Shown: positions 12,986 to 31,735, numbered from the stretch's first letter. The stretch: 64,000 bases of DNA from Thermodesulfovibrionia bacterium (GCA_020053105.1 JAGVNU010000042.1:15502-79501); one strand, 5' to 3'. A program made the numbers and translations. Notes: generated by a model from the letters alone, not told the origin.

Positions 12986-12996
12986 AGATGAAGGGT

Positions 12997-13030
12997 AAAA
13001 AGGAGCCGGTATCTTGCCGGCTCCTTTTTT
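12997..13030 (+). terminator. Rho-independent terminator after OmcS-like gene 1
   Basis: Stem ggagccgg (13002-09) / ccggctcc (13017-24), 7-nt loop, A-run before and tttttt (13025-30) after. Confidence 0.8.
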
Positions 13031-13100
13031 AAGGTTCATCAAAAAATGTAATATGATGGGGAATTAAGAAGGTTCTGAAAATCAATTCTTGGAAATTACT

Positions 13101-14141: not shown

Positions 14142-14251
14142 GTCGCTGATTGTTATGAGATCTTTGTATATGCCCGGATGATGCAAAAAGGTCAGATTAA
14201 TCAAGGAATAGCTAAAAGAGCGATTATTTGTTAGATATAGAGGAGCAAACA

Positions 14252-15370
14252 ATGGAAGACAAATATTTCAACGATAAAAGGATCCTGATATTTTGTAGTG
14301 CAGTAATAATGTCACTATTTCTGACAGGCATCCCTTTTTCACTTTTTGCCGCAATTACCGGGGAATGCGCCAACTGCCACACTATGCACAACAGTCAGGA
14401 TGCATCGGTCATGGCAGATTACGGGGCATCCGGCAAGCCATGGAAAGGCAGTGGTCCAAATGATGCGCTGACTCGTGGTGATTGTCTCGGATGTCACGGC
14501 ATTGGTACTTCCAAAGTTGTAACCTTAGGCACAAGTGAGATACCTCAGGTTTATCATACTGATGCAACCGGTGATCTGGCAGGCGGCAACTTTGCTTATA
14601 TACTTGGTACAAAGGGTAGTGGCGCATCTGATGCTAAGGGACATAATATAGTAGAAATTGGTGATGCTGAAAGTACATTATCAGAGCCTCCGGGGCACCA
14701 TTCACCCAGCAGCATAAGAGTTAATATCACCTGTTCAGGAATAACCGGCTGTCATGGTAAACGAGCTTCAGGGGAAATCTTGAAAGGGGTCCATCATAAA
14801 AATGTTGATGGTGCGCTTGATACCTCTGACCAGGTTTATAACAGTTACAGATTTCTTTACGGGGTCAAGGGCTTTGAAAATACGACAGGTTCTTATAAAT
14901 GGCAGAACTTTGATAAAGATAATCATAATGAGTATTTTGGTGCAACTACCCCCATGAGTTACACCGGTTGTAATATCTGCCATACTCCGCAGGGGATCCA
15001 GCCTACTAATCATACAATAAGCGGTTTCTGTGGAACATGTCATCGAGAATTTCACACGGTTGAGGGTATTGGCGGCGACACCAGTACTCCGTTCCAGAGA
15101 CATCCAACGGATGTGATCTTGCCTGGCAGCGGTGAGTACGCAAGTTACAATGGGGTCGGCAATCAATATAGTGTACAGGCCCCGGTAGCCAGAACAGCGA
15201 ATCCTATTATTTCCATTAGCGATACGGTCATTCCTGGAACAGATGTAGTCATGTGTCTCTCCTGCCATATGGCACACGCGTCCAATTATCCTGACATGCT
15301 GAGGTGGGATTACAGTGCGATAGAATTAGGTGGTTCAGGAGGTTGCCTTATATGCCACACATCAAAATAA
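14252..15370 (+). CDS. OmcS-family multihaem (6 CxxCH + CX5CH) cytochrome, paralogue 3
   Basis: ORF track 14228..15370; ATG at 14252 follows GAGGAG. Signal ...SLFA, then [17 protein letters not shown]. Further motifs: [91 protein letters not shown]. Confidence 0.8.
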
Positions 15371-15425: not shown

Positions 15426-15700
15426 TTCAGTATATGGCCAGCGATATTTTCTGTAGTTTGTTAACGCAATGATCTCTCCATGATTGTGATATTTCCTGAA
15501 ATATATTAATAAAACTATAAGTACATTGAATTACATAACAACTTATTGCTATTATTTAAAACTTGATCTGATAGTTCGTTGTAAAATCACAATATTTTTT
15601 GCGACGCTTAACATAAGAATAAAGCAGGGGAAATCAGTCGCCACCTTAATGATTTGGTGCTTATTTGCAAAGCGCAGCTGAATCGCATTTTGTACCCATA

Positions 15701-16672
15701 ATGGAAAAAAAAACCAATCAAGCGAGAATCCTGTTACAGAGGACAACTTATTTTCTTTCTTCTGTTCTAGTTGTGCTGTCGTTGGTCCCTTCAGCTCTGG
15801 AGTCCCAGCAGCTTGGTTCTGCCATTATTACCTATCAGGAGAGCATCACTACTGATGAAGAGGACAGAAATCTGGTATTGCCCTCGTTTATTTATGCAGA
15901 TTTATTAACAGGTGAAGTTTATGTTATAGATGGTAAGGGCAGAATTATTATATTTTCACCCGAGCTGTTTCCGTTAATTACACTCGGCAAAAGGGACGGA
16001 GTTGAAGCGCCTCAGGGGTTGACTGTGGATGCTGAAGGTAATCTTTATATTGCCCAGGCCGCATCAAAAAGCAATCCGAAAAACAGGATTTCGGTTTACA
16101 ATGCATGCCTGAAGTGGGAAAGGGATATATATTTGGAGGATTTTGAGGGGAGCGGTTCATTTGCCCCTTATCGCCTTGCAATAGACAAGAAGGGGAATCT
16201 GTATGTGGCGGCAAGCCATTTCCCCGGTGTCGTGTATGTAGATACAACGGGTCGTTTTATTGATATTATTGCACCTGAGGAGGATGGGAAAAAAATAAAA
16301 TTAAATAGTGTCGTTATTGACAAGGCAGGGAAAATATATGTTGTAAGTGAGGATCAGAGTCATATTTATGTTTATGATGAAAATAGAAAATTTATTAATA
16401 AATTCGGTGAAAAAGGCGGAAGCACGGGTAAACTCAGCCGTCCCAAGGCCATTGGGGTGGATGACCGAACAGGCAGAAGCTTTGTCGTGGATTATATGCG
16501 CCACACGGTAACTTCATATGATAAGGAAGGTAAGTACCTTTTTGAATTTGGTGGGCTCGGGTGGAGCGAAGGATGGTTCCAGCACCCGGTCAATTTAGCG
16601 ATTGACAATAAAGGCAGGATCTTTGTGGCAGATTTATTTAATCAGCGGGTACAGGTGTTTAATTCCTGGTAA
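15701..16672 (+). CDS. Secreted NHL-repeat beta-propeller protein
   Basis: ORF track 15665..16672; ATG at 15701 preferred. Hydrophobic signal (YFLSSVLVVLSLVPSALE). NHL-type blades, e.g. PQGLTVDAEGNLYIAQ, PYRLAIDKKGNLYVA, PKAIGVDDRTGRSFVVDYMRHTVTSYD, PVNLAIDNKGRIFVADLFNQRVQVF. Confidence 0.85.
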   Translation: MEKKTNQARILLQRTTYFLSSVLVVLSLVPSALESQQLGSAIITYQESITTDEEDRNLVLPSFIYADLLTGEVYVIDGKGRIIIFSPELFPLITLGKRDGVEAPQGLTVDAEGNLYIAQAASKSNPKNRISVYNACLKWERDIYLEDFEGSGSFAPYRLAIDKKGNLYVAASHFPGVVYVDTTGRFIDIIAPEEDGKKIKLNSVVIDKAGKIYVVSEDQSHIYVYDENRKFINKFGEKGGSTGKLSRPKAIGVDDRTGRSFVVDYMRHTVTSYDKEGKYLFEFGGLGWSEGWFQHPVNLAIDNKGRIFVADLFNQRVQVFNSW

Positions 16673-16853: not shown

Positions 16854-18431
16854 ATGAAAAATACTAAATATATCTTAAGACTCCGGCTTTTCATGATATT
16901 TTTTGCAACTGTCATTTTTCCCCCGGGTTGTATGACTCCGGAAGAGCAGGCAAGTCACCCTGAGATGTTTAAGTGTCAGGTGTCCCTTTTTTTTAACGGC
17001 CCTGACATGGCTGCCAGTGATATCACCTTTGAGCTGGCGGGAGTCAATATAGTAGCAGAAGATGGGACTTCCAGAGAAGTTGTGCGCGCTCCTCTCCGTA
17101 TTAATTCCAATGATATAAAAGGCCGTCAAATATTTCTGGGTGAAAAATCTTTACCTGAAGGCAAGTACGAAAAGCTTCAGTTTGTCATAAAGGAAGCGTC
17201 TATCAGTAAAAAAGGGAAGACCTCACATCTAGCGTTGCCGCCCGGGGGAGTGGAGTTAGGCATTGATGTTTCCTTAAGAAGAAATCAGAGTACCACATTA
17301 TTTCTGAACTGGAATGCTGATGCATCTGTCAGTGAGGACTACCTATTCAACCCTGTATTTACGGTAAAGAGTCAGGGCGCTGAATTAAGTTCTCTGCTTA
17401 TTTACGTAACTAATGAGGATTCGGACTCCGTCTCGGTGATTAACAGGCAGGCCGGTGAGATAGCCGCGACAGTATTGGTGGGGAAAAAGCCGAGGGGGAT
17501 TGCGACTTCAATTACGGGAGAGCGCCTTAAGGTTTATGTTGTGAATTCAGGCTCAAACAGTATCTCAGTAATCGACCCTACAACGAATAAAATAGAGAAT
17601 GAGATCCCTATCAGGTTCGGCAGGCAGCCGGAAGCTATCGCTGTAGCAGGCATATCCGCTGATAAGGAGCTGATATTTGTCGCCAATTACGGCTCCAATT
17701 CAGTTTCCCTGGTGGACGCATCCACTTATCAGGAGCTGGAGAAGATAGATGTAGGGCGAGGCCCAATAGCAATTGCAACAGACCCACCGGTGGAGGATCT
17801 TATGGGATCGAGGTTTCTCAGCTTTGATGATATTAACTTATTAAGAAGTTACAGGGAAAGGTTTTTTAATGTTTATGTAGTCAATCAAAATTCCAACAGC
17901 GTTTCCGTGTTGAGGATTGACGCTGTGGCTAAGAAGAGCGTGGAAGTTATTAATCTAAGCGTGGAATGGAGACCCGTCGCGCTAAGCGTGGATTATCAAA
18001 GGGGCAAGGTTTATATAGCCAATTATGATTCTGACAAACTGTCTGTTATAGATATCCCCAAAACAGTAAAGGGCATTACGTCAGATGCTGTCAGCACCAT
18101 TAATAATGTGGGATTTTCTATAATAGGTGTCATCGCTGACCCGGCCTTCGACAGGCTGTATTTATTAAAAGAACGTACCGGGGAGGTAGTGATTGTCAGA
18201 CCTTTTACAGACAACCTTGATACCCTCAGGACAGTGATGCCTCCGGTAATGGGGACTATTGCCGTGGGGAGTTCGCCAAGAGCACTCGTTTTAGATCCTG
18301 AAGCCAGAAAGCTGTATGTAGTTAACAGCGGATCAGACAATATTTCAGTTATAGATAAAACCACAATAAATGAAGAGCAGATCATCCCTGTAGGCAAGAA
18401 GCCTTACGGTATAACATTTTTCCAGAAATGA
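16854..18431 (+). CDS. Lipoprotein with N-terminal DUF4382-like domain and YVTN-type beta-propeller
   Basis: 525-aa ORF with a lipobox-like FPPGC. The N-terminal roughly 170 aa resemble the DUF4382 pattern (LPEGKYEKLQFVI...LALPPGGVELGIDV...LFLNWNADASV). Then repeated YVTN-like blades (IYVTNEDSDSVSVINRQAGEI, VYVVNSGSNSISVIDPTTNKI, IFVANYGSNSVSLVDASTYQ, VYVVNQNSNSVSVL, VYIANYDSDKLSVID, LYVVNSGSDNISVIDKTT). Confidence 0.8.
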   Translation: MKNTKYILRLRLFMIFFATVIFPPGCMTPEEQASHPEMFKCQVSLFFNGPDMAASDITFELAGVNIVAEDGTSREVVRAPLRINSNDIKGRQIFLGEKSLPEGKYEKLQFVIKEASISKKGKTSHLALPPGGVELGIDVSLRRNQSTTLFLNWNADASVSEDYLFNPVFTVKSQGAELSSLLIYVTNEDSDSVSVINRQAGEIAATVLVGKKPRGIATSITGERLKVYVVNSGSNSISVIDPTTNKIENEIPIRFGRQPEAIAVAGISADKELIFVANYGSNSVSLVDASTYQELEKIDVGRGPIAIATDPPVEDLMGSRFLSFDDINLLRSYRERFFNVYVVNQNSNSVSVLRIDAVAKKSVEVINLSVEWRPVALSVDYQRGKVYIANYDSDKLSVIDIPKTVKGITSDAVSTINNVGFSIIGVIADPAFDRLYLLKERTGEVVIVRPFTDNLDTLRTVMPPVMGTIAVGSSPRALVLDPEARKLYVVNSGSDNISVIDKTTINEEQIIPVGKKPYGITFFQK

Positions 18432-18540: not shown

Positions 18541-20829
18541 ATGAGGATTATATTATGCAATATTTCAGTCCTTATAATGTCCGTATTTTTATTAAACTCT
18601 TTTTCTCACTCACAGGGATTGAGCGGATATTTTGATATAAATAAAAATATCACTAAAGAATATGAGGATGGTGAAAGGACATCATCTTCCGAAGCATTAA
18701 ACCGTAATTTATATCTTAAGTTGCAGGAACCGATTACACCGGTGCTTTCTTATCAGTTTAACTTACGGACAAATTTTCTGGATTCAGAGACAACGGACTC
18801 CCTGGACGTGACTTCGACAAGGTACACCAGGTCGCTTGAGCCGGCGCTGGATCTGATTCTCGGGAACCCGGGGTATAATTTTAGTGCAGGCGCACGCCGC
18901 AGGGAACAATGGACCGCAGCGCATATGAATAATGACAACAGAAAGACAAATGAATATTATTATTCCAGATTCAGCCTGTCCCCCGAGGCATTGCCTTCTT
19001 TGACACTTCAGATAGACAAACAGAAGAACTATGATTATCTTTCTCCGAGGGCCGTGGATGACAGCAACACGGTATATTCCATCAACTCAGCGTATGATTT
19101 GCCGCCCGGAGATGTGAAGTTCAGATATACGGTCAATTATTCATATACTATAAACCAGACCCCTTTAAAGCTTAACAATAAAACTGTAATTGATAATTTT
19201 AACACCACGTATAACATTGGATATTCCAGCCGCTTCTGGCAAAATAAAGCCGACTACTCCATAGGCTATCAGGGGAATTATTCAAGGAGCAAGAGTGAGC
19301 AGTTTGTTACTCAAACGGGCATTGTCCTGAATGAGAGGGTCCCTTTTGCTGGGCTTTATATATTTGACGATATACCTGTTGATCCCACTACCGGGGCCTT
19401 AAATACTGAAAACAATCTCATAAATAATGATGTTACTACACCGATAACAAGCATAAACATCGGCCCAATCAGCCCCGCTACAACCCATATAAATCATAAT
19501 ATAGGCATCTGGGTTTCACAGGAAAATTCTGTAGACCGGTTATATATTTATGTTGATAGAGACGTAAGCGGCGATATAAATCTGGGAAACGTCAGCAACT
19601 GGAAGGTTTATAAGAGCAATTCAAATACAGCAGTAACAACCTGGACAGAGGTGGCCATAAACCAGGTGACGATTTCTATTAATACCCTTGATGGCATATT
19701 CCGCTATGAGCTAAAATTTTTGACCGAGCAAAATGCCGCCTATTTTAAGGCCGTTAACCTGGCGACTGTTAACTCCAGCAATGTAGGACCGACCGATCCG
19801 GTATATGTGACGGAGATTGAGGCCCTCGGCAATGATCTGGCGGATGAGGAAAAACTCGTTGACGCATCTAATACTTTTTCACAGCAACTAAGTTTAAATA
19901 CCAGTTTCAGGCCCACAAGCAAGCTGACCTTCGCACTTTATTATTCTATAGACAGGTCGGACCAGAACATGGTTTCAGTTGTAAATTCTGTAGGAGGCGT
20001 TTTCGAAAATATCTTCAGTGATTCCTTCGGGGACGATAAATGGGATTTCACAAGTAATGTAACAAGGGGCTACAGCGCGTCTTCTACCTGGCTGACGCAC
20101 AGGTTCCTTACCACCTCATTCCGTGTACAACGGAATGAATCCTTTGACAATATAGAAGAGACAGACTTTAATTCAAATTCCTACAGTCTGTCTTTTTTCA
20201 CTGAGCCGCTTCCGACACTTAATGCCAATTTATCATTAATCAGAAGTGACAATTTCAGTTTCGGTGATAAGGCCTCTGCGAATGATTCTATTCTGTTAAG
20301 TGTAGGTTCCAGACTATACAGGGACCTGAACATGATCACGGATGCAGTTTATACCAGGGCATACTCATTTGCGAGTGAGACCACTTCTACAACCCAGCAG
20401 ATAAACGGGACACTGGACGCCCTTCTTACCCGGAAATTGTCAGGGACCTTTACTTATCATATCAGCCGGACCTTGTCTGACGGCACGCCTTCAGATTTAA
20501 AGGATGGGTCTGTTTTTATTACTTACCGGCCGGGGAAGCTGATCAATTTCTCCGGCAATTTTAAAATAACAGATTCAGATGGGGAAACATCAATCGCAGA
20601 GGGAATGCTGATGGACTGGCTTCCTCTGCCTGCTATCAGATTAAATGCAAACTATCAGCACAGTGATTCAGAGCCGGGACCTGTAAAGACGGACACTATT
20701 AACGGATATGTAATATGGTATGTAACAAAGTTTGCAGATGTCCGCTTTATAAACAGTTACTCGAAACAGGTTGATAATAAAGAGACGGAAAATTACAGTA
20801 TGAGCGCAAGCTTAAATTGCAGATTCTGA
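18541..20829 (+). CDS. Large outer-membrane beta-barrel protein with an inserted jelly-roll (discoidin/F5-8C-like) domain
   Basis: 762-aa ORF with a signal peptide (VLIMSVFLLNSFSHSQG). Long runs of alternating-hydrophobicity strands (FTYHISRT, VFITYRPG, INFSGNFKIT, VIWYVTKFADVRFINSY). C-terminal OMP beta-signal ending ...YSMSASLNCRF. The central roughly 160 aa (nt about 19350-19830) end in VYVTEIEALG, typical of discoidin-like domains. Confidence 0.7.
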   Translation: MRIILCNISVLIMSVFLLNSFSHSQGLSGYFDINKNITKEYEDGERTSSSEALNRNLYLKLQEPITPVLSYQFNLRTNFLDSETTDSLDVTSTRYTRSLEPALDLILGNPGYNFSAGARRREQWTAAHMNNDNRKTNEYYYSRFSLSPEALPSLTLQIDKQKNYDYLSPRAVDDSNTVYSINSAYDLPPGDVKFRYTVNYSYTINQTPLKLNNKTVIDNFNTTYNIGYSSRFWQNKADYSIGYQGNYSRSKSEQFVTQTGIVLNERVPFAGLYIFDDIPVDPTTGALNTENNLINNDVTTPITSINIGPISPATTHINHNIGIWVSQENSVDRLYIYVDRDVSGDINLGNVSNWKVYKSNSNTAVTTWTEVAINQVTISINTLDGIFRYELKFLTEQNAAYFKAVNLATVNSSNVGPTDPVYVTEIEALGNDLADEEKLVDASNTFSQQLSLNTSFRPTSKLTFALYYSIDRSDQNMVSVVNSVGGVFENIFSDSFGDDKWDFTSNVTRGYSASSTWLTHRFLTTSFRVQRNESFDNIEETDFNSNSYSLSFFTEPLPTLNANLSLIRSDNFSFGDKASANDSILLSVGSRLYRDLNMITDAVYTRAYSFASETTSTTQQINGTLDALLTRKLSGTFTYHISRTLSDGTPSDLKDGSVFITYRPGKLINFSGNFKITDSDGETSIAEGMLMDWLPLPAIRLNANYQHSDSEPGPVKTDTINGYVIWYVTKFADVRFINSYSKQVDNKETENYSMSASLNCRF

Positions 20830-20872: not shown

Positions 20873-21487
20873 ATGGGAATGAACATGATTGACAGGGTGA
20901 CCAAGGGAAAATGCGGCCGGTTTCAGATATATGTATTAACGGTCCTTTGTTTTTTTATATTTTTTACAGGCGGGTGCAGCACCACCTCGAAGAAATATAC
21001 CCGCCCTGACTTCGACATAAACTCGATTAACACCATTGCGGTGCTTCCCCTTGAGAACTTCACTTCAGACAATTACGCGGACGAAAAGATCAGAAGTAAA
21101 ATAAGCATTGAACTCTTATCACGGGACCTTAACATTATTGAGCCCGGCGAAATCATTTCGGTCTTAAGGGAACTGAAGATTAAATCCGTTGATTCCATTC
21201 GAAATAAGGACATGGTGAGCATAGGAAGCATGTTAAATGTTGAGGCTGTTCTCACCGGGTCGGTGGAAGCATTCGGGATAAGCAGAGGAATTGCGGCGTC
21301 ATATCCCGAGGTGTCTGTCCATCTGATGATGTTTGACACGGTCACAGGGAATATTGTCTGGTCGGCCTGGCATACAAGCGGCGGCGCAAGTTTCTGGACG
21401 AGGCATTTCGGCGCAGAAGGCAGCACCCTCGATAACGTATCTGAAAGGGTAATTAAAGAGGCATTTGATGCTCTATATAGTCGTTAA
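20873..21487 (+). CDS. Lipoprotein with a CsgG/LpoB/TolB-N-like alpha/beta domain (family shared with next two genes)
   Basis: 204-aa ORF with lipobox FFTGGC. Domain starts NTIAVLPLENFTSDNYADEKIR. C-terminal block HTSGGASFWTRHFGAEGSTLDNVSERVIKEAFDALY is paralogous to the 21573..22160 product. Confidence 0.7.
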   Translation: MGMNMIDRVTKGKCGRFQIYVLTVLCFFIFFTGGCSTTSKKYTRPDFDINSINTIAVLPLENFTSDNYADEKIRSKISIELLSRDLNIIEPGEIISVLRELKIKSVDSIRNKDMVSIGSMLNVEAVLTGSVEAFGISRGIAASYPEVSVHLMMFDTVTGNIVWSAWHTSGGASFWTRHFGAEGSTLDNVSERVIKEAFDALYSR

Positions 21488-21572
21488 CTGCCGGTCATGG
21501 GGAAAATTAATTATAAGGCCTGCCGGCGGAGAATTACATAACTGGAAATTGATACTTGATGAATAAAGGAGA

Positions 21573-22160
21573 ATGGCTATGCGTTTATTGAAAAAATATG
21601 TACCGGCATTAATGGGTTTAATCCTGTTTATTATTTCGGGATGCCGAGGCGATATCCCGGTTTATCATATCAGTGAGGACATAGATTTCAGTTATTACAA
21701 GAGAGTAGCGGTTGTTCCTTTTGATAATCTGACAAATGACAAATATGCCGATGAGATCGTGAGGCAGGTGGTTGTGAGCGAGCTTTTGGCATCAGGCCTT
21801 GTTGACGTTGTGTTTCCAGGTGAAGTCAAGAGCGCCATTGCCGAGCTGGGCATTAAATCCGTCTCTGCACTGACGGCAAACCAAATCAAGTCGCTGTGTA
21901 ATACACTTAAGGTGGAAGCGCTCATTGTCGGGGCGGTTGAAGAATACGGCGAAGTGAGGATGGGAAATATCTCAGCGCCCCAGGTTACGTTGAGCTTAAT
22001 GATGGCGGATGCGAACACCGGGTCTATCGTGTGGTCCATTACGAAAACACGCGGAGGCGCAGGTTTTATGGCACGGCATTTTGGAGCAAGGCATGAAACA
22101 GTCAGTGAAACTGTGTTGTTGCTTGTAAGAGAATCAATCAGGACTCTATATAAGCAGTAA
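21573..22160 (+). CDS. Lipoprotein, paralogue of 20873..21487
   Basis: 195-aa ORF with lipobox FIISGC. Motifs KRVAVVPFDNLTNDKYADEIVR and KTRGGAGFMARHFGARHETVSETVLLLVRESIRTLY. Confidence 0.7.
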   Translation: MAMRLLKKYVPALMGLILFIISGCRGDIPVYHISEDIDFSYYKRVAVVPFDNLTNDKYADEIVRQVVVSELLASGLVDVVFPGEVKSAIAELGIKSVSALTANQIKSLCNTLKVEALIVGAVEEYGEVRMGNISAPQVTLSLMMADANTGSIVWSITKTRGGAGFMARHFGARHETVSETVLLLVRESIRTLYKQ

Positions 22161-22284
22161 TTGGTCATTGCCTTATGATCAGCTGTTAACATCCACTGAC
22201 ATTTAACCTGTGTCGGTCTAAAGACTAAACGATTACCATGGCCAACATACAAATATCAAAGGTTTCTGTCCTGGGATTTATATA

Positions 22285-24126
22285 ATGAAGAAAGTAATTA
22301 TCAGCTTCATTATATTTATTGTCGGGGCACTGTCTCTCTTTATATATTCCTCGAATAATGAGGGAAGGGCCACCCGATTATCAGGTGAGGAAATGACTTC
22401 TGAGAAGAAGGTATCGACGTCCCCTGCAAAAGGTCCCACCGGTTCTGCGGAAGTACCCTTGATCACGGGCCCAGAAATCAAAGAGCCTGCAACAAGCAGG
22501 GATGAGACCGAAAAACCTATTGAAGATGCTATTCATAAGAAAGAGCCGGCGATAAAAGCTGAAGCAAGATTGGAAGCGGCCCTGCCGGTGCAAGAGATAA
22601 AAGAAAAAGGAGAACAGCCTGCGACTTTTACTGCTGAAGTTTCCCCGGGGGAAATGAATAGAAAAGACGAAGCCAGGCCTCTCGAAAAAGAGACGGACCG
22701 GTTTGTTGAGAAAAAGGAATTAATTATTAAAGAAGAACCTGTCGGAACGGCTGAAAAAATAACGGTAGCCGCGCCCGTAGAGGAGATAATAATAACTGTC
22801 GATAAGCCGGTCCTTATTAAGGAAGTGGAAAAGGCCGCAATACCCCGTGAGGAAATTAAACAGCCGATCATAAAGACAGCATTGGCCAGGGAAGAGTCAC
22901 GTGTTGTGGAAGAAAAAGCGGAGACCATGCCTGCCGGAGGATTGATTATAATGCCGATTGAAACTCCGGCGACTGTCCTTAGCAAACTATCGTCTGCAGG
23001 ATCGAAGGATATAATGCCTGAGAGGGCAAAAGAGCAGCCTTCTGTAAAGATGGAACCGGCTGTTGCTGTTGTCTCTACTGAGAAGGCCACGGTCAAGGGA
23101 GAAATAATTTCCCTGGCAGAGAAAACGAAAGGGGACATGGAAAAGCCTGGGCCGTTTACCGGTGAGATGTTGATTGAAGGGAATAACAAAAGGATTGCGA
23201 TATTCCCATTTGAAAACTTATCTGATAACAGGGACGCATTCAAACATGTTTTACCGCTTTTGATAGATAAGCTGGAAAAAAGAGGGTTTGAAGTTGTTGA
23301 TGAGGACGACCTCAACAATTTTTTATGCGGGGAAAGGGTCCGGTCCACGGGTTATATTTCAAGAGAACTCTCCGGGAAAATACGAAAGAGATTTAACGTA
23401 TCAACTATTCTGGCAGGGGCCATAATTTCCTTCTCCGATGAAGATATCCCAGAGTTTGGAATCCTTGCGCGCATGGTAGAAACATCCGGCGGCACAATCA
23501 TCTGGGCGGATTATTCCGCTGCAACAGGGGAGGATTTCATTGCGGTCCTGGAGCTGGGGAGATTGAAGACGGTATTCAGTTTAATTCCAAAGGTCATTGA
23601 TATATTGTTTGCATCATATAAAGACGGAGATATTAACAGGGAAACAAAACATTTGCACAGAATTGCCGTGATGCCTTTCAAGAATAACACCGGCTTCAAT
23701 AATGCGGGAATTATCGCCACCTATATGTTCATAGTGGAAATATTTAAAAGCCGGCTTTTTATACCTGTAGAATATGGTGATATCAGAGATATAATCATTA
23801 AACAGGGCATAAGGCTTAAAGGTGATATCGGTTATGAAAATATCAGCGAGCTTTCAAATGAATTGAAAGCAAGGGGTATCCTGGTGGGTGTAGTCGATAA
23901 TTATTCGAACGGCGCCGATGGTTCCATGTCCCCGAATGCTGGCATTACCGCAAGGCTTGTCGATGGCAGTAATAAAAAAATTATGTGGTATAATAGCAGC
24001 CAATTGAGCGGAGAAGATAACATTATTGCCCTTGACTGGGGCAGGATCAGGTCAGTCCATTCAGTTGCTTATAAGGCTGTTTCCGGTTTAGTGAAAGAAA
24101 TGAGCAGGAAAAAATGGCGTGATTAG
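22285..24126 (+). CDS. Envelope protein: signal/anchor + about 290-aa E/K/P/A-rich low-complexity linker + two copies of the same lipoprotein alpha/beta domain
   Basis: 613-aa ORF with an N-terminal hydrophobic helix (VIISFIIFIVGALSLFIY). Residues about 30-320 are rich in E, K, P, I, A. Two domain starts: KRIAIFPFENLSDNRDAF and HRIAVMPFKNNTGFNNAG. Confidence 0.7.
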   Translation: MKKVIISFIIFIVGALSLFIYSSNNEGRATRLSGEEMTSEKKVSTSPAKGPTGSAEVPLITGPEIKEPATSRDETEKPIEDAIHKKEPAIKAEARLEAALPVQEIKEKGEQPATFTAEVSPGEMNRKDEARPLEKETDRFVEKKELIIKEEPVGTAEKITVAAPVEEIIITVDKPVLIKEVEKAAIPREEIKQPIIKTALAREESRVVEEKAETMPAGGLIIMPIETPATVLSKLSSAGSKDIMPERAKEQPSVKMEPAVAVVSTEKATVKGEIISLAEKTKGDMEKPGPFTGEMLIEGNNKRIAIFPFENLSDNRDAFKHVLPLLIDKLEKRGFEVVDEDDLNNFLCGERVRSTGYISRELSGKIRKRFNVSTILAGAIISFSDEDIPEFGILARMVETSGGTIIWADYSAATGEDFIAVLELGRLKTVFSLIPKVIDILFASYKDGDINRETKHLHRIAVMPFKNNTGFNNAGIIATYMFIVEIFKSRLFIPVEYGDIRDIIIKQGIRLKGDIGYENISELSNELKARGILVGVVDNYSNGADGSMSPNAGITARLVDGSNKKIMWYNSSQLSGEDNIIALDWGRIRSVHSVAYKAVSGLVKEMSRKKWRD

Positions 24127-24154: not shown

Positions 24155-25816
24155 ATGAAAGCCGTCTTGAATATGCGGAGTGTTTTGATAATGCGCGGGA
24201 ATAATTTGTCTTTTTTTTGCCTTTGCTCATTGTTCTGTGTTCTGGTTGTTTCCGGCTGTGCATCGGTCCCCGGAGAGGGGAAAAATGCACTGGCATGGGT
24301 CGATGGAGAGCCGGTCACCAGAGAAGATCTCGGATATTCACTGCAGATTGCCCATCGCCGGGAGGACCTCTCAAATGCGAAGAAATTCGATATGTCCCAG
24401 TATATACAGAAGTTGATAGATGACAGATTGATTGTGCAGGAAGCGCTGCGTATGGGACTGGAAGATTCTCCAGAGCTCCAGGAGAAGATCAGGGAATATG
24501 TACTGAGGGAGTCGGTAGTAAAACTTTATAATGAGGAAATTGTCGGCAAGGCTTCTGTGACCCCGGAAGATGTGAAAAAATACTACAGGGAAAACTACGA
24601 GGGTTTTACTTTAAACATTATCGAGGCAGGCAGTGAGGATGAAGCAGGTGAGATAATACGCAAACTTCAGGGCGGTGAAGGGTTTGATAAATTTGCCCTT
24701 GATTATGCTTCTCATTCAGAAAACCAGAATCCCAAAGATCTTGTAGTCAAAAAAAAGAACCTGAGGCCGGCCATACAGGAGGCTGTTTCCGGTTTAAAAC
24801 CTGGAGACATAAGCGGTGTTATAAAAGACCAGGACAAATATTACATTGTGAAATTATTAGACAGACAGGCTGCGCTGGATGAGGACCTGGCATCTGTCCG
24901 TGCCAGCATTGCGAGCATTCTAAGAGATGAGAAGATTAAGAAACGAAGCGATGATTATCTCGCTGAACTTCGCAAAAAATCAGATGTTAAAATTGACAGG
25001 GACCTTTTGGCCTCTATTAAACTGGAAGAAGGAAATAAGACACGCGAAGAATGGTTAAATGATAAAAGGCCCCTTGTGCAGGTAAATAACATGACTCTTG
25101 CAGCCGGCGATTTTGCCGCTATGCTCCCGGAAAAGCCTCTTAAATCAAACGAAGAAATCCTCGATCAGTGGATTGACCGCAAGGTTGTAGATATTGAGGC
25201 GCTGGGCCGGCATTATGATATAAACACAGACCTGAAAGACATGTTGCAGCGTTATAAAAATGTGCTTCTTAAGACCGCATTTGTGAGGAAAGTAATTAAC
25301 CCTCAAATAAAGGTATCAGATAAAGATGCGGAAGATTATTACCATGGCCACCAGAATGAGTACGCCAAACAAGGTAAATACAAGATCCAGCAGATTACAT
25401 TGAAGTCTCAGGAAGACGCACAAGCGGTACTTAATAGTCTGGCAGGCGGCGCCAGTTTCTCCTGGCTTGCCAAGACCAAATCAAATGACCCATTAGCCCC
25501 ATCCGGCGGGGTCTCGGATTGGCAGACTAAAGCTCAATTGCCCGGGCCTGTAAAGGATATTATTGATGATCTTAAGCAGGGAGAGGTTAGCCCGGTATTT
25601 CAAATTGACGGGGAATATCTGATAATCAGACTCATGGAGAAGTCCGGGTTTGAAATTGAGGAATTCCGTAATGTGAAGGTAACCGTTTTAAATTCAGTTT
25701 ACAAGGAAAAATATAATGAAATATACGATGCATATATTAATAAATTAAGAAATGAAGCCAGGATAGAGCTGAATGATGAGGCTATCCGGTCTTTTGAAGA
25801 AACCTTTATAAAATAG
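24155..25816 (+). CDS. SurA/PpiD-like periplasmic chaperone lipoprotein with parvulin-like PPIase domain(s)
   Basis: 553-aa ORF with lipobox VVSGC. SurA-N-like helical region (SQYIQKLIDDRLIVQEALRMG). Parvulin-like segments (PEDVKKYYRENYEGF...GDISGVIKDQDKYYIVKLLD and DAEDYYHGHQNEY...GGVSDW...GEVSPVFQIDGEYLIIRLME). The first lacks the GGDLG signature. Confidence 0.7.
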   Translation: MKAVLNMRSVLIMRGNNLSFFCLCSLFCVLVVSGCASVPGEGKNALAWVDGEPVTREDLGYSLQIAHRREDLSNAKKFDMSQYIQKLIDDRLIVQEALRMGLEDSPELQEKIREYVLRESVVKLYNEEIVGKASVTPEDVKKYYRENYEGFTLNIIEAGSEDEAGEIIRKLQGGEGFDKFALDYASHSENQNPKDLVVKKKNLRPAIQEAVSGLKPGDISGVIKDQDKYYIVKLLDRQAALDEDLASVRASIASILRDEKIKKRSDDYLAELRKKSDVKIDRDLLASIKLEEGNKTREEWLNDKRPLVQVNNMTLAAGDFAAMLPEKPLKSNEEILDQWIDRKVVDIEALGRHYDINTDLKDMLQRYKNVLLKTAFVRKVINPQIKVSDKDAEDYYHGHQNEYAKQGKYKIQQITLKSQEDAQAVLNSLAGGASFSWLAKTKSNDPLAPSGGVSDWQTKAQLPGPVKDIIDDLKQGEVSPVFQIDGEYLIIRLMEKSGFEIEEFRNVKVTVLNSVYKEKYNEIYDAYINKLRNEARIELNDEAIRSFEETFIK

Positions 25817-25826: not shown

Positions 25827-27803
25827 TTGAGGGCTATGAGGATGAAATCCGGATTTAAACATATCATTTTTAAAATTTCTTTGTTGGCAGTTGTATTTCT
25901 TTTTGTCCAGTGCGCGCCAGAAATAAAACCTTCCAGAAAAGGTTTTGTGCCTAAACCATGCATGGACTGCCATACCGAGACCCAGAGCGAGTTTTCAAAA
26001 CAGTACGTGCATGATCCTATGAGTAAGCGTGATTGTGAGGCATGTCATCTTCGCCACGGAAGACTGGCAGTTAAATCATTTGTCGAAAGGGAAGAAAGAA
26101 AGCTCTGTTTTATTTGTCACACGAAGATGGCCTCAGATGTTGAAGGGATGACAAGCGTACATACAGTCCTGAAACAGGGCAAGTGCCTGCCGTGCCACAA
26201 CGCCCATGCGTCTGATAATAAAGCCCTTCAGAAAAAGGTGGGGAACGAGCAGTGTTTTATGTGTCATGATAAGGCCCCTTTTGAAAGGACGAAGCGGCAT
26301 AAGCCGCTTGATGACGGGTGCATTGCATGTCATGCGGCTCATGGGTCTCAATATAATGGCAACCTGATCAAAGCGGAAGTGGATCTGTGCCGGTCCTGTC
26401 ATAAATATGAGGAGGACGGTTTCAGAAATGCCCATAAAAAATATCCCGTTGAAAAGGGTAACTGCTCCGGATGCCACACATCTCACAGTTCCTCAAACGA
26501 CAGGCTTTTGAGAGAATCGGTCCATGAACCTCTCATTTCGGGACAGTGTAATTCATGCCACAAACCGGATACGGACCCGGAACCTTTTGCGGTCATTGCC
26601 CCGGACGGTAAACTTTGTTATACATGCCATGAAAAAGAAGAAAAAAAATATAAGACTGCATACGTGCATCCCCTGACGAATGAGGGCAAATGCCTGAGCT
26701 GTCACAGTCCTCATGCATCAGACTATCCCAGGGTCACAATTAGAGATAAAAATGATCTTTGCACGGACTGCCATATGGAAAAGCCGAATATTAAGGTCAG
26801 CAACCTCCATGCACCTATAAAAAAAGACGGCTGCACTGCCTGCCATAATCCGCATGCATCGGAAAATAAGTTTTACCTGAAAGCAGCGGAAAAAAAGATA
26901 TGTTTTTCGTGCCATCCCAAAGTAGAAGAAGAGTTGATAAAGGCGGCATATTCACACAAGCCTTTTCTGGACATCGAATGCTCAAAATGCCATGATTCCC
27001 ATGGTTCAAACAATGCTGCAATGGTCAGGATGCCGCTGACCGACCTGTGTTATGAGTGTCATAAAGACGCGGCAGAAAAATATTTCAAGACCTATGTCCA
27101 TAAACCGGTGAGTGACAGGCAATGCTCAGCCTGCCATGCGTCACATGCCTCAGAATATGATAAATTATTAAAGAATTCAGAGGCGGATCTGTGTATGAAG
27201 TGCCATGAGAGCATGTATCTTGAAATGGAAGAGGAAGGCACCCATCCGCTGTTTAAAGACAAAAAGTGCGGCACCTGCCACGATCCGCATGCAAGCGACA
27301 ATGTTGCATCCACCATTATGCCGGCCAATAAACTTTGCTTTACGTGTCACGAAGCTGTAATGGCAGGGATAACTAAAAGCGCTGTTAAGCATCTTCCTGT
27401 AGAAGAGGGCAAATGTTCTGAGTGTCACAGTCCTCACGGGACGAAGCTTAAATATCAGTTATTAAACCGCCCCAATGAACTATGTCTCTCGTGCCATGAG
27501 AGGATAATTACTACAACAGCGAGAAAGGGCCATATATACATGGAAAACGGTGACTGCCTAAGCTGCCATAGTTCGCATTATTCAGACATGAAGCATCTAC
27601 TCAAGGGCGCTGACCCTGCAATATGTGTTCAATGTCACTCTACAGATACGGAAAGACTGCTGAAAGTGCACCGGGAATCGATAAACAAAATAGGCCGCTG
27701 CACAAGTTGTCATGAACCTCATGTAACGGAACGCCAGGGCTTACTGAGAGAGATAATGCACGAACCGTTTACCAGGGGAGATTGTGAGGCCTGCCATGTA
27801 TAG
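25827..27803 (+). CDS. 26-haem c-type cytochrome (probable lipoprotein)
   Basis: 658-aa ORF. I counted 26 CxxCH motifs, regularly spaced about 20-25 aa apart, many as CxxCHxxH[AG]S pairs. Possible lipobox LFVQC. The last haem motif (CEACHV) is the C-terminus. Start is uncertain (TTG 25827, ATG 25836 or 25842). Confidence 0.9.
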   Translation: MRAMRMKSGFKHIIFKISLLAVVFLFVQCAPEIKPSRKGFVPKPCMDCHTETQSEFSKQYVHDPMSKRDCEACHLRHGRLAVKSFVEREERKLCFICHTKMASDVEGMTSVHTVLKQGKCLPCHNAHASDNKALQKKVGNEQCFMCHDKAPFERTKRHKPLDDGCIACHAAHGSQYNGNLIKAEVDLCRSCHKYEEDGFRNAHKKYPVEKGNCSGCHTSHSSSNDRLLRESVHEPLISGQCNSCHKPDTDPEPFAVIAPDGKLCYTCHEKEEKKYKTAYVHPLTNEGKCLSCHSPHASDYPRVTIRDKNDLCTDCHMEKPNIKVSNLHAPIKKDGCTACHNPHASENKFYLKAAEKKICFSCHPKVEEELIKAAYSHKPFLDIECSKCHDSHGSNNAAMVRMPLTDLCYECHKDAAEKYFKTYVHKPVSDRQCSACHASHASEYDKLLKNSEADLCMKCHESMYLEMEEEGTHPLFKDKKCGTCHDPHASDNVASTIMPANKLCFTCHEAVMAGITKSAVKHLPVEEGKCSECHSPHGTKLKYQLLNRPNELCLSCHERIITTTARKGHIYMENGDCLSCHSSHYSDMKHLLKGADPAICVQCHSTDTERLLKVHRESINKIGRCTSCHEPHVTERQGLLREIMHEPFTRGDCEACHV

Positions 27804-29127
27804 GGAAAAAATTAAAAATATAATATTAAAAATGAAAAATAACGGGAATGAAAAAGTTTTCAATTCAATGACCTGCAGTTTGCAATTTGCGGTTTACTTT
27901 TTTATAGTCGGTTTTCTGCTCTTGTGGGGCAGTGCCGTCCATGCGCAGGTTAAACTGAAAACAAAAGTGCCTGACCTTTGTTTTGAATGCCATAAAGAGC
28001 TGAAAAAGGCCCAGTCAGATCCGTTTGTACATTTTTTGTTTAAAGAAGGAAAATGCGTTACCTGTCACGACGCTCATGTTGGCAAGAGAAAGGGCCTGCT
28101 GGTTGATCAGGTTGATACTATCTGCCTCGGATGTCATGACAGCATAAGGAATCTGGTTGAAAATACGATAGTCCACGGCGCTCTCAGGGAACATAACTGC
28201 ACAGAATGCCACTCCGCGCACAGTGCGAAAAATAAGTATCTGCTGGCCAAAGAGGAAAAGGGCCTCTGTCTGACTTGTCATGAAAATTTAAACCAACAAT
28301 TGCAGAAGCCATATATATGCCGTCCTTTTAAGGACGGGGAGTGTTCAGCCTGTCACAATTCTCATGCATCTTCGGTTAATAGTCTTCTGGTCTCCCCGCC
28401 TGATAAGCTGTGCAAAAAATGTCACGAACCAAAATGCAGGGCCGGCTCGGTATCTATCGCTTCTGCAGTGGAAGAGATGGATTGTACTACATGTCATTCC
28501 GGTCATAGTTCCCTTGATAAAGGCCTTCTCGGTCCCTTCGGTCATAAGGTCTTTCTCGACAAGAATTGTGAGGAGTGCCATAATCCGATCAAATCACCGC
28601 GAGACATAACCACTAAGTTAAAAGGGGCGGATTTATGTTTCAAATGCCATAAAAGAAACATGTCAAAATATGAATATGTCGACAATGACATACATGTTAA
28701 AGATGCCAGGAACCCGTGCAGTGTCTGTCATGATGAGCATGCTTCAACCCAGAAGAATCTCACAAAGAAGGAATCCGATGTTTGCGCAAAGTGCCATGAA
28801 AGTACGGAAAGAAGGACAGCGGCAATGGAAAGGGCACTGAAATCAGCAGGATGTGAGCCGATAAAGAACAGAAAGTGTTTCGAGTGTCATATACCTTCTC
28901 ACTCATCCCGTCCGCTTGATTACCGGGCAGATGAAATTCCGCTTTGCGCCCGATGTCATTCAGCACAGCATAAGATTACTCATCCGGTTGGAAGTGATAT
29001 TAAAGATCCCCGCAACGGCCGGCCTTTGACCTGTAATTCATGCCATAGTATGCATTCTGCCAATGCCGACTTTATGCTTACTCATGACAGAAAGAGGGCA
29101 CTCTGTATCCAGTGTCACAAGATGTGA
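27796..29127 (+). CDS. 16-haem c-type cytochrome
   Basis: ORF track 27784..29127. The ATG at 27796 follows GAGG and overlaps the upstream stop codon. TM/signal FAVYFFIVGFLLLWGSAVHA. I counted 16 CxxCH motifs. Confidence 0.9.
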   Translation: MYREKIKNIILKMKNNGNEKVFNSMTCSLQFAVYFFIVGFLLLWGSAVHAQVKLKTKVPDLCFECHKELKKAQSDPFVHFLFKEGKCVTCHDAHVGKRKGLLVDQVDTICLGCHDSIRNLVENTIVHGALREHNCTECHSAHSAKNKYLLAKEEKGLCLTCHENLNQQLQKPYICRPFKDGECSACHNSHASSVNSLLVSPPDKLCKKCHEPKCRAGSVSIASAVEEMDCTTCHSGHSSLDKGLLGPFGHKVFLDKNCEECHNPIKSPRDITTKLKGADLCFKCHKRNMSKYEYVDNDIHVKDARNPCSVCHDEHASTQKNLTKKESDVCAKCHESTERRTAAMERALKSAGCEPIKNRKCFECHIPSHSSRPLDYRADEIPLCARCHSAQHKITHPVGSDIKDPRNGRPLTCNSCHSMHSANADFMLTHDRKRALCIQCHKM

Positions 29128-29252: not shown

Positions 29253-30344
29253 TTGATCAGATTAAAACGTTACATATTCCTTCCGGTAGTCATCCTGGTA
29301 ATTGCTCTATTTTCGGCTGAACTGCCGGCTGTGATTACGGGACAATGCAGCGATTGCCATACTATGCATAACAGTCAGAACGGGGCTGCCATGGTTTCGT
29401 ATGTATTCGGTTCTGAAACAACAGACGCAAAGGAGTATCTCCTCGTTGGAACGTGTTTAGGCTGCCACGCCCAGGGGGGGGCAAGCATGGTTGCAAATGT
29501 AAACGGCATTGATACACCCCAGGTTTATCACACTGATGCAACAGGCGATTTAGCGGGTGGTAACTTTGCCTATATTCTTGGCACAAAGGGATCAGGCGCA
29601 TCTGATGCGAAGGGGCATAATGTTGTCGATTTTGGCAATACTGAAGATACCCTTTTGTCTCCACCGGGGCATCATGAGCCTGACGGGATAGGGATAAATA
29701 TTACCTGCGCAGGGATAGCCGGCTGTCACGGAGTTCGAACATCCAGTGGCGGCATCTATGGTAATCATCACCGCAATGAAGACGGAAAGCTCACAACTGC
29801 TGATCAGGCATATAACAGTTACAGGTTTTTGACTGGAGTAAAAGGACTTGAGGACTCTGACTGGGAGAAAACAAAAAGTGTGTCAGACCACAATGAGTAT
29901 TTCGGGGCGACCTCACCGATGACTTTCAGTTCAAACTGCAATATCTGCCATAATCCACAGGGGATACGACCTTCAAATAATACAATTAGCGGATTCTGCG
30001 GGACCTGTCACAGATATTTTCATGTGTCAGATCAAGTTAATGGGATTTCTTCCCCCTCTCCTTTTACAAGGCATCCTACCGATGTGATTTTGCCGGGAAG
30101 TGGTGAGTATGCAAGTTATAACGGGGGAAGTAATCCGTATAGTTTAGTGGCCCCTGTGGCCCGGACTACAATTCCTGATGTTCCTGGGGATACCGTTGCA
30201 CCTGGCACGGATGTTGTTATGTGCCTGTCATGTCATACTGCTCATGCAAGTGACAACTCTGACATGATGAGATGGGACTATAAGAGTACAACCCTGGCAA
30301 CGGCCATTTCGGGATGTAATGTATGTCATACAGCAAAAAATTAA
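29253..30344 (+). CDS. OmcS-family multihaem (6 CxxCH + CX5CH) cytochrome, paralogue 4
   Basis: 363-aa ORF with a TTG start 12 nt after GAAGGAG. Signal ...AELPA, then [18 protein letters not shown]. Further motifs: [91 protein letters not shown]. Closest paralogue of 14252..15370. Confidence 0.8.
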   Translation: MIRLKRYIFLPVVILVIALFSAELPAVITGQCSDCHTMHNSQNGAAMVSYVFGSETTDAKEYLLVGTCLGCHAQGGASMVANVNGIDTPQVYHTDATGDLAGGNFAYILGTKGSGASDAKGHNVVDFGNTEDTLLSPPGHHEPDGIGINITCAGIAGCHGVRTSSGGIYGNHHRNEDGKLTTADQAYNSYRFLTGVKGLEDSDWEKTKSVSDHNEYFGATSPMTFSSNCNICHNPQGIRPSNNTISGFCGTCHRYFHVSDQVNGISSPSPFTRHPTDVILPGSGEYASYNGGSNPYSLVAPVARTTIPDVPGDTVAPGTDVVMCLSCHTAHASDNSDMMRWDYKSTTLATAISGCNVCHTAKN

Positions 30345-30397
30345 TGAGAGGGAGAGAATCTACAGGGATGAGAAGACGGCATAACGAAGAGTACATA

Positions 30398-31735
30398 ATG
30401 GATACTGTGAAATCGTCAACTTTTTATAAGTTGAAGACATTATTATTGACGATATTGAGTTCACTTGCCTTATCCGGAATGTATTATATTGAACCGGCCA
30501 ATGCCGGAACATACCTGAATTCCGCTCATGGCAATTCTACATACGGAGTTAAAAGAAGCGCATCGGGTTTTCCAACTGACTATACAAAAGGTCTCTGCGG
30601 TCACTGCCATGAGCAGCACTCCAGTGTGGATGGATCTGAACCGGAGCCGATTGACGGGTCCCCGTCTACTTATGAGTTATTTTATAGCAACTATGTGAAT
30701 CAGACAGATAATATTTGCTTTCAATGCCATAAAGATATCAGTTCGTATCAGACCGGCGGCAGTCTGGTAAACCGGAGCTACAGCTTCAGGGCTGGTGGAT
30801 GGACTGCTGATTCGCTCAATGATCTCCTTGAAGCTTTTTCAGTTGCTTCTCCTGGTTCATCACATTATCTTGATAATGTAACTACGTTAATTACTGCGAA
30901 AAGCTGGAATTATACATCTGACTCTAATCCCTGCGATGCATGCCATAATCCTCACGCAGCCCAGGGTGATCCAGTCGGCGCCCCAAACAGCGCCAAAAGT
31001 TCCGGCACAAGGGGCTGGCCTGTTTCCCGTCCAAGCCTGCACAGTGAAGACAATAGTGTATGGGGCCTCTGGGGAGATAGCTCAGGGGAAAAGATGAGCG
31101 ATTACGCCGGAGTACTCACATATCAGGCCCCTTACCGGTATAATTCCACAACCACGTATGAACCTGATGGCTCTACAACACAGAATGGGTCCAACCTGAC
31201 GGATTATGTTACCTTCTGTACAGACTGCCATAATACTACAAATACAATCTATAGCACTACGCTTGGAAGGAACCTGCGCGCTGTTGACTGGACCGCAGCC
31301 AAGCACGGCAAAGGGGCTGCTGTACTGGATAGCGCTTCCGACATTTTCCCGCCTTATCAGGACGCCCAGTTAGGTAATTATGTTATGTCCTGTACGGATT
31401 GTCACGAGCCGCATGGGTCTACAAATGTATTCTTTATCAGGGGAGAGGTGAATGGCAGCGTTCCGGTCACTGTTCTTACAGAGGCAGGAACAAACGACGG
31501 TCCGGGCAGCAGGTGCAACAGTGAGTGGACCTACCTTTGCGGTAAATGCCATAAAAGGCTTGTCAGTTCGGATGGACATGCGCATCCTTCATTTATTCCG
31601 CCGGATACTGAAGGCTGTTCAGACGCATCCTGTCATAGCGGTGATGACGGGTGTATTTACACGTCATGCGGCACATGTCACTATCATGAATCCGACACTG
31701 TTTTCGGAACACCCTACGGCGAAAAATTATTTTGA
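30398..31735 (+). CDS. Secreted multihaem c-type cytochrome (7 CxxCH + CX4CH), family distinct from OmcS-like genes
   Basis: ORF track 30323..31735. Start is uncertain (ATG 30368 or 30398). Signal LLLTILSSLALSGMYYIEPANA. Motifs: CGHCH, CFQCH, CDACH, CTDCH x2, CGKCH, CSDASCH, CGTCH. Ser/Thr/Asn/Gly-rich. Confidence 0.8.
   Translation: MDTVKSSTFYKLKTLLLTILSSLALSGMYYIEPANAGTYLNSAHGNSTYGVKRSASGFPTDYTKGLCGHCHEQHSSVDGSEPEPIDGSPSTYELFYSNYVNQTDNICFQCHKDISSYQTGGSLVNRSYSFRAGGWTADSLNDLLEAFSVASPGSSHYLDNVTTLITAKSWNYTSDSNPCDACHNPHAAQGDPVGAPNSAKSSGTRGWPVSRPSLHSEDNSVWGLWGDSSGEKMSDYAGVLTYQAPYRYNSTTTYEPDGSTTQNGSNLTDYVTFCTDCHNTTNTIYSTTLGRNLRAVDWTAAKHGKGAAVLDSASDIFPPYQDAQLGNYVMSCTDCHEPHGSTNVFFIRGEVNGSVPVTVLTEAGTNDGPGSRCNSEWTYLCGKCHKRLVSSDGHAHPSFIPPDTEGCSDASCHSGDDGCIYTSCGTCHYHESDTVFGTPYGEKLF

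Follow-up and report, generated by a model that had tools for sequence, protein, structure and literature searches.

Three adjacent genes in a 64,000-nucleotide (nt) stretch of DNA from a Thermodesulfovibrionia bacterium (GCA_020053105.1, JAGVNU010000042.1:15502-79501; hereafter the window, whose own coordinates are used throughout) encode four copies of one alpha/beta domain, and we conclude with high confidence that their products, here called A, B and C (20873-24126), are OscF/OscG-type proteins of an osc-like cluster, osc being the set of genes that accompanies the cytochrome OmcS. By comparison of models and of sequence profiles, PelC is the nearest solved relative of these domains, and on balance we favour the view that A, B and C are PelC-like subunits of an osc-type outer-membrane apparatus in Nitrospirota. 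The way in which cytochrome nanowires pass through the outer membrane and become attached to it has been described as an unanswered question (bioRxiv 10.1101/2025.10.22.684050). The osc cluster (2025) and the fold family were already known; new, as far as can be checked, are PelC as the closest solved analogue, the four-domain A-B-C arrangement in one Nitrospirota clade, and the recurrent grafting of spacers or peptidoglycan-binding modules onto OscG/OscF-type subunits. The kinship with PelC gives a concrete structural model for the OscEFG unit.

The genes are separated by 85 nt (A-B) and 124 nt (B-C) and from the flanking genes by 43 and 28 nt; since all lie on the same strand with such short gaps, A, B, C and the flanking genes fit a single transcription unit. 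Their features, with protein lengths in amino acids (aa), are as follows:

20873-21487, + strand: gene A, a 204-aa open reading frame (ORF) with lipobox FTGGC (Cys35) and a single PelC-like alpha/beta domain; a clade-specific second OscF-like paralogue
21573-22160, + strand: gene B, a 195-aa ORF with lipobox ISGC (Cys24) and a single PelC-like domain; OscF orthologue
22285-24126, + strand: gene C, a 613-aa ORF with an N-terminal helix, a disordered spacer and two PelC-like domains; OscG orthologue
22288-22359, + strand: hydrophobic N-terminal helix of C, without cysteine (residues 2-25; predicted local distance difference test, pLDDT, 86-91); putative inner-membrane signal-anchor, or cleaved signal peptide
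22360-23178, + strand: E/K/A/P/I-rich intrinsically disordered spacer of C (residues 26-298, about 273 residues), from composition and pLDDT
22921-22968, + strand: sole conserved island of the spacer, ETMPAGGLIIMPIETP (C residues 213-228; P216 invariant in an alignment of 13 long-spacer orthologues)
23179-23622, + strand: C domain 1, PelC-like alpha/beta (residues ~299-446), with high pLDDT, the strand/helix order of B, and Foldseek matches to PelC and GNA1162
23647-24123, + strand: C domain 2, PelC-like alpha/beta (residues ~455-613), from the AlphaFold model, Foldseek and 26% identity to B

An earlier note on this DNA had proposed that one alpha/beta domain occurs four times in these three genes, and this was borne out: the three ORFs and all four domain starts are present, and BLASTP comparison of the pieces related A to B (37% identity over 187 aa, 127 bits), C domain 1 to C domain 2 (28%, 144 aa, 59 bits), B to C domain 2 (26%, 156 aa, 52 bits) and A to C domain 1 (22%, 120 aa, 40 bits). 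A profile made from two-domain C homologues alone, run on 4,291 six-frame ORFs, recovered B (E=1e-21) and A (E=1e-14), so that the similarity of the four domains lies far above chance. The C-terminal block GG[AS][SG]F..RHFGA, which the note had seen in the two short proteins, is almost invariant in 38 B/A homologues (G161, G162, F165, H169, F170 and G171). The domains map to no enzyme family. B is much better conserved than C, the nearest database relatives being 85-90% and 57-66% identical, respectively, apparently in the same genomes.

The genes around A-B-C identify the system, and this cytochrome-nanowire cluster context had been overlooked in the earlier reading. They are, in order:

8577-11554, + strand: histidine kinase and sigma-54-dependent response regulator, opening the cluster; many OmcS loci are preceded by the same pair
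11939-15370, + strand: three OmcS-like multihaem cytochromes in tandem (348, 350 and 380 aa), carrying 5, 6 and 6 CXXCH motifs
15665-16672, + strand: NHL-repeat beta-propeller protein, from a domain scan and comparison with OmcS loci
16854-18431, + strand: lipoprotein with a YVTN beta-propeller and a DUF4382-like N-terminus, at the OscD position
18541-20829, + strand: 762-aa protein with a signal peptide and C-terminal ...CRF, a putative large outer-membrane beta-barrel, at the OscE position
24155-25816, + strand: SurA-N/PpiC-type peptidyl-prolyl isomerase (PPIase), at the OscH position
25827-27803, + strand: 26-haem cytochrome with 13 paired CXXCH motifs, at the OscI position
27784-29127, + strand: 16-haem cytochrome, at the OscJ position
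29253-31735, + strand: two more multihaem cytochromes

Species-representative genomes were scanned with the OmcS chain sequence, and the ORFs at the matches were annotated with the window proteins. The 78 loci so obtained come from Geobacterales, Geomonas, Citrifermentans, Anaeromyxobacter, Nitrospirota, Rokubacteria, Acidobacteriota and others, and about 38 of them have a common order: (kinase, regulator), NHL protein, OmcS-like cytochrome, YVTN protein, barrel, single-domain lipoprotein, two-domain protein, PPIase and 26-haem cytochrome. At these ~38 loci the two-domain profile scored E=1e-60 to 1e-92 on the ORFs at the OscG position and E=1e-11 to 1e-18 on those at the OscF position, and a protein of 724-841 aa stands in related loci where the window has its 762-aa barrel candidate. 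In BLASTP, B matched the OscF-position ORF of Geomobilimonas luticola, a cultured member of the Geobacterales, with 37% identity (E=5e-40), and the core of C matched the OscG-position ORF of the same organism with 25% identity (E=1e-26).

For Geobacter sulfurreducens, the work of Shen et al. 2025 (Cell Chem Biol 32:239), as far as it is summarised in PMC13194489, assigns OscH to folding, OscE, OscF and OscG to secretion and OscD to morphology, and the same summary equates oscC with GSU2501 and oscI with GSU2495. Because the numbering from GSU2501 to GSU2495 brackets five genes, the letters D-E-F-G-H become fixed on the YVTN, barrel, single-domain, two-domain and PPIase genes; and the one-to-one match of these five intervening genes with the window identifies B as the orthologue of OscF and C as that of OscG. 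The primary osc paper reportedly speaks, in its abstract, of a 'channel-like OscEFG'. The need for OscE, OscF and OscG in OmcS secretion, as summarised for Geobacter (PMC13194489), would apply to A, B and C by analogy.

The window thus shares with the osc cluster OmcS-like cytochromes, the YVTN propeller, the barrel, F, G, the PPIase and the 26-haem cytochrome, in that order, and it shares with OscF and OscG both the position in the cluster and the succession of a single-domain lipoprotein and a two-domain protein; their sequence homology was established against the OscF/OscG-position proteins of Geobacterales loci. There are also differences: (i) the window has two single-domain genes (A and B) and four domains in all, whereas other clusters have one such gene and three domains; (ii) C carries a helix without cysteine and a disordered spacer of ~270 aa, where most OscG homologues have a lipobox and 7-35 aa; (iii) the cytochromes of the window are distantly OmcS-like, and its host belongs to the Nitrospirota.

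The pair of A-type and B-type genes occurs in all seven loci of one Nitrospirota clade (the window, L001, L002, L003, L083, L084 and L085), whereas OmcS-anchored loci have one OscF-type gene. A triplet in orthologous clusters, whose absence would have told against the earlier note, was therefore found in the nearest clade, while the wider family has the doublet of OscF and OscG. B is the more conservative copy, with a mean identity to canonical OscF-position proteins of 34% (28% for A), and the A and B clades share a mean identity of 40%; by these comparisons A is a clade-specific second OscF-like paralogue. Searches with full-length C gave 55 matches and with the core alignment 387, all of those listed being Nitrospirota, and at E up to 1e-30 the two-domain (OscG-like) family comprised 624 sequences, each representing a cluster at 50% identity.

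The kinship with PelC comes from models and profiles. In Pfam and NCBIfam, A and B gave only sub-threshold matches (GNA1162-like, LpoB, TolB_N and CsgG) and C gave none. AlphaFold2 models were built with family alignments: the model of B (mean pLDDT 83.6) has the order beta-alpha-beta-alpha-alpha-beta3-alpha, and that of C has a confident helix (residues 2-25), the disordered spacer and then two confident domains with the topology of B. Foldseek against the PDB ranked PelC first and GNA1162 (4hrv) second for both models, followed by CT253, FlgT, the flagellar LPHT ring, CsgG, TolB-N and LpoB; the CsgG/LpoB/TolB-N-like fold class suggested in the earlier note was thus recovered, with PelC and GNA1162 ahead of it. 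The PelC matches comprised the G. metallireducens protein (5t0z), the P. phytofirmans dodecamer (5t10/5t11) and the PelBC complex (9h80). Both models aligned to PelC at E 1e-8 to 1e-10 with a template-modelling score (TM-score) to target of up to 0.83, and B aligned to 5t0z, 5t11 and 9h80 at E ~1e-10 with TM-scores to target of 0.70-0.83. The relation also extends to sequence, a B-family profile finding PelC chains among PDB sequences at E=1e-7 and 2e-4.

In PelC, 12 lipoproteins make up a ring that sits on the rim of the PelB barrel facing the periplasm (PMC12141448). As in PelC, the domains of the window are small alpha/beta domains, lipidated in PelC and carrying lipoboxes in A and B, their genes adjoin that of a putative outer-membrane barrel, and their role would lie in export across the outer membrane. 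However, the two systems show important differences: (i) PelC is a homo-dodecamer of one gene product, whereas the window would contribute up to four different domains from three genes; (ii) the cargo here would be a haem protein, that of PelC being a cationic polysaccharide; (iii) the window cluster has neither pel genes nor a PelB with its tetratricopeptide-repeat barrel, its neighbours being cytochromes, propellers and a PPIase; (iv) the PelC ring is solved, whereas that of the window is proposed from PelC only.

Other relatives are less close. GNA1162/DUF799 (4hrv) has the same fold (Foldseek E 1e-7 to 1e-9), and its family PF05643 is the best Pfam match of A, with scores under the Pfam cut-off; in GNA1162 operons DUF799 is paired with DUF4810 and a CsgG-like gene, and these partners are not in the window. 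LpoB, the outer-membrane lipoprotein that activates PBP1B, has a related fold and the same succession of a membrane anchor, a long disordered linker that spans part of the periplasm and a globular domain, but it is monomeric and serves peptidoglycan synthesis, whereas the anchor of C is not a lipid and its context is one of cytochromes; the spacer of C is about five times as long as the LpoB linker. FlgT/FlgO of the flagellar H-ring and CsgG belong to the same fold superfamily and form ring assemblies at the outer membrane, and many C homologues carry precomputed FlgO matches (PF17680); their structural scores are lower, however, and no flagellar or curli genes lie near A-B-C. In architecture alone, C resembles TonB and TolA, with an N-terminal helix, a Glu/Lys/Pro-rich spacer and a C-terminal domain at the outer membrane. 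Membership of C in the TonB/TolA group was rejected, a Pfam scan of C finding no TonB_C or TolA domain, and no ExbBD/TolQR-like genes were seen among the window ORFs scanned, a scan that took in part of the ORFs.

The anchors of the three proteins differ. A and B have a PelC-type lipobox, as do most OscG homologues, and C has none: its N-terminal hydrophobic segment, MKKVIISFIIFIVGALSLFIY, consists of 18 unbroken hydrophobic residues with neither cysteine nor lipobox, so C is not a lipoprotein, and the label of lipoprotein given to all three in the earlier note holds for A and B only. In E. coli lipoproteins an Asp at +2 after the lipobox Cys is the inner-membrane retention residue; A has Ser and B has Arg at this position, a comparison that follows the E. 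coli rule, which may not be that of the host. Most OscG-position proteins are lipoproteins (xxGC) with 7-35 residues ahead of domain 1, and comparable helices without cysteine are present in other long-spacer homologues of C. As judged from these sequences, the lineage of the window C appears to have swapped the OscG lipobox for such a helix.

The spacer of C, which the earlier note had put at roughly 290 aa, indeed precedes two domains and measures about 273 residues. Its composition is 17% E, 12% K, 11% A, 9% P and 9% I, with a charged-residue fraction of 0.35 and a slightly negative net charge, and AlphaFold2 leaves it disordered, with pLDDT <50 and no secondary structure for residues 31-299. 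We estimate that it measures ~13.5 nm from end to end as a random coil, its contour length being ~98 nm. DNA tandem repeats were looked for in the spacer and none were found; therefore it is not the product of a recent repeat expansion. The island ETMPAGGLIIMPIETP is short and hydrophobic, with prolines on both sides, and may be a docking or beta-augmentation motif. In one C orthologue of 694 aa (P0008), an ~80-aa internal duplication lies inside the spacer; the spacer therefore evolves by segmental changes in length.

Spacer length is variable across the C family, from ~30 to ~540 residues, with ~270-280 in the lineage of the window. Domain 1 starts at residue 303-329 in most of the 8 nearest full-length orthologues (57-66% identity). 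In intermediate relatives this start falls at 105-283, and most others have it at 30-75. Among the best 150 representatives of the two-domain family, about 35 have an N-terminal extension of more than 120 aa, and the E/P/K-rich extensions of this family usually follow a helix without cysteine.

The sister loci reach into the envelope by other means. In L002 (8011-9354), A has a coiled coil and a C-terminal OmpA module, and C is a short lipoprotein; in L084 (8001-9644, P0028), it is C that carries a C-terminal OmpA module; and in L083 (6291-7238), A has an E/K/P-rich tail of ~110 aa, with a helix and a ~190-aa spacer in C. These OmpA modules and E/K/P tails suggest that a link of the complex to the wall or the periplasm has been selected for repeatedly. 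Arrays of Calx-beta (x3-14), PKD/Big or MBG (x7) domains occur in more distant OscG-like proteins, either at the C-terminus or between the lipobox and the PelC-like domains. Those with Ig-like arrays are:

15450-19841 of L039
17490-20318 of L014
15458-17386 of L045
15549-18998 of L068
P0357
P0381

Such arrays would be rigid spacers where the C of the window has a disordered one. The Nitrospirota variant offers natural experiments, namely a duplicated subunit and interchangeable envelope-reaching modules (a disordered spacer with a helix, OmpA modules or Ig-like arrays), and these point to OscG as an adaptor that places the gate within the envelope.

Taking this together, we propose the following mechanism, which makes both the hetero-oligomeric ring and the periplasm-spanning tether of the earlier note plausible. 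A and B would be lipidated and held at the inner leaflet of the outer membrane, and their domains and both domains of C would assemble a ring of the PelC kind where the adjacent 762-aa barrel opens to the periplasm. Ring and barrel would act as a gate or socket for the hexahaem OmcS-like cytochromes of the upstream genes, which would be exported through it and/or held there as a surface filament, delivered by the PpiC/SurA-like chaperone at the OscH position. The helix of C would probably remain in the inner membrane, and the spacer would most likely tie the outer-membrane ring to the inner membrane or project deep into the periplasm. The periplasm is a few tens of nanometres wide, and the spacer could bridge it because of the random-coil and contour lengths estimated above. 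We rate the parts of this proposal differently: a ring of A, B and C on the barrel has, by analogy with PelC, a slightly better than even chance, and that C is an inner-membrane tether we advance only tentatively, as something short of an even bet. A fuller version, in which a hetero-oligomeric ring of A, B, C1 and C2 (for example 3 copies each, making 12) is coupled to the inner membrane by the ~270-residue OscG tether as a trans-envelope nanowire machine, with the PAGGLIIMP island docking the barrel, the chaperone or the cargo, is speculative and on present evidence quite unlikely; in Geobacter-type clusters, 4 copies of three domains would likewise give 12.

Several observations weigh against the proposal: (i) the ring is suggested by homology to PelC at ~20% identity, and LpoB and TolB-N share the fold yet form no rings; (ii) the 762-aa barrel candidate has neither a Pfam match nor a PDB sequence match, and its barrel fold is putative; (iii) the OmcS-like proteins of the window are distant from OmcS (E=1e-7), and the filament that they would form is putative; (iv) the assignment to OscF and OscG draws on synteny, interpolation of gene names and a secondary summary; (v) the osc locus of G. 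sulfurreducens itself is not among the 78 OmcS loci, cultured Geobacterales being used instead; (vi) the N-terminus of C could be a cleaved signal peptide (G-A-L-S; an AxS site fits some orthologues, not all), which would remove the tether; and (vii) spacer length, whose conservation the earlier note had asked about, is conserved among close relatives and not family-wide, most OscG homologues having 7-35 aa.

Could the same domains serve something else? To two readings we give next to no weight. General envelope-housekeeping lipoproteins, LpoB-like activators of penicillin-binding proteins or GNA1162/DUF799-type proteins that are mere neighbours of cytochrome genes, would explain why Pfam LpoB is matched by 32 of 38 B-family members and GNA1162-like by 20 of 38 (E up to 0.01), and why one source labels a family member LpoB. 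Yet the slot between barrel and PPIase is strictly kept in OmcS-type clusters of several phyla, PelC is the closer relative, the context is unrelated to peptidoglycan synthases, and in the loci examined these families stand in cytochrome clusters and not mostly elsewhere beside genes of penicillin-binding proteins; with TIGR02722 (LpoB) at 18.7 bits against a cut-off of 110.55 and PF13036 at 19.3 against 22.3, and given the cytochrome context, an LpoB-type activator was rejected. A CsgG-like transmembrane channel formed in the outer membrane by the A, B and C domains alone, which we hold to be just as improbable, is brought to mind by CsgG among the Foldseek and Pfam matches; but the domains measure ~150 aa against ~250 for CsgG, their TM-score to it is <=0.5 with a root-mean-square deviation of 9-14 A (0.7-0.83 to PelC), the models lack the extra beta-hairpins, which in CsgG each protomer contributes to a 36-strand transmembrane channel, and a dedicated barrel gene adjoins. 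With a Pfam CsgG score of 12.8 bits against a cut-off of 20.8 as well, a self-contained channel of this kind was rejected. A more serious reading, unlikely as we judge it, keeps the ring and changes its purpose: the barrel would sheathe a multihaem cytochrome, such as the 26-haem protein, as MtrB does MtrA, and the ring would stabilise or seal the entrance or anchor the base of a filament. The barrel candidate is MtrB-sized, the 26-haem and 16-haem cytochromes follow directly and are as syntenic as the ring genes, and in Petersen et al. the barrel is no more than 'putatively functioning as a secretion or anchor'. Against such an electron conduit, the role of PelC is export, and the sole functional statement that we found, in the summary cited above, assigns OscE, OscF and OscG to OmcS secretion; the conduit and secretion readings may both be true.

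The remaining rival reading concerns C, whose spacer might be no tether: after cleavage of a Sec signal it would be a free, disordered periplasmic arm. Such an arm might pass through the peptidoglycan as an entropic spacer, or else serve OmcS-like subunits or the PPIase as a holdase or docking arm, the PAGGLIIMP island being its binding motif. This is a somewhat unlikely outcome, though it accommodates the signal-peptidase-like G-A-L-S of the window and A-x-S of several orthologues, the single conserved motif within an otherwise unconserved spacer, the lipobox retained in some long-spacer homologues, and the sister loci, which carry peptidoglycan-binding OmpA modules and not membrane anchors. 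It fits less well with the 18-residue hydrophobic run and the polar or charged residues directly after it, with the F, L or T at the would-be -1 position in orthologues, with the confident ~24-residue helix in the AlphaFold model, and with the presence of a 17-22-residue helix without cysteine in many independent long-spacer homologues.

Among the cytochromes, the 380-aa protein (14228-15370) aligns to residues 7-347 of OmcS (6ef8) at E=1.2e-7, the first paralogue (11939-12985) has no PDB sequence match, and three cytochromes in the window have 6 CXXCH motifs. There are four paralogous OmcS-like cytochromes of ~350-380 aa, three in tandem upstream of A-B-C (11939-15370) and one downstream (29253-30344). 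Other Nitrospirota metagenome-assembled genomes have OmcS homologues with 50-68% identity, far closer to Geobacter OmcS than the window paralogues are; set against them, the divergence of the latter therefore indicates two osc-like cluster types in Nitrospirota. To judge by the cluster, this uncultured Nitrospirota lineage of groundwater type is likely to produce extracellular cytochromes that resemble OmcS. In a search of sequencing runs for expression, the one weak match (7% of words) was a DNA run of a groundwater metagenome, and no RNA run matched.

As regards regulation, a sigma-54-type promoter-like site, TGGCAT-N5-TTGC (11860-11874, + strand), precedes the first OmcS-like gene by 65 nt and closely follows the gene of the sigma-54 activator; across the window such sites are not more frequent than expected by chance, and it is the position of this one alone that is suggestive. 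Scans for sigma-70 promoters and terminators were at background level. On either side of the cluster the minus strand carries further electron-transfer and haem genes. At 659-8256 lie divergent electron-transfer genes, which encode several multihaem cytochromes, among them a protein of 764 aa, as well as an NHL protein and a membrane protein resembling cytochrome b (DUF4405/Ni_hydr_CYTB), a set that may be an inner-membrane quinol-oxidising module feeding the cluster. Directly downstream of the cluster, 32110-36870 encodes a multihaem cytochrome, a SurA_N-only protein, hemC, hemA and a CcsA-type cytochrome c assembly gene; genes of haem synthesis and maturation therefore adjoin the cytochrome island.

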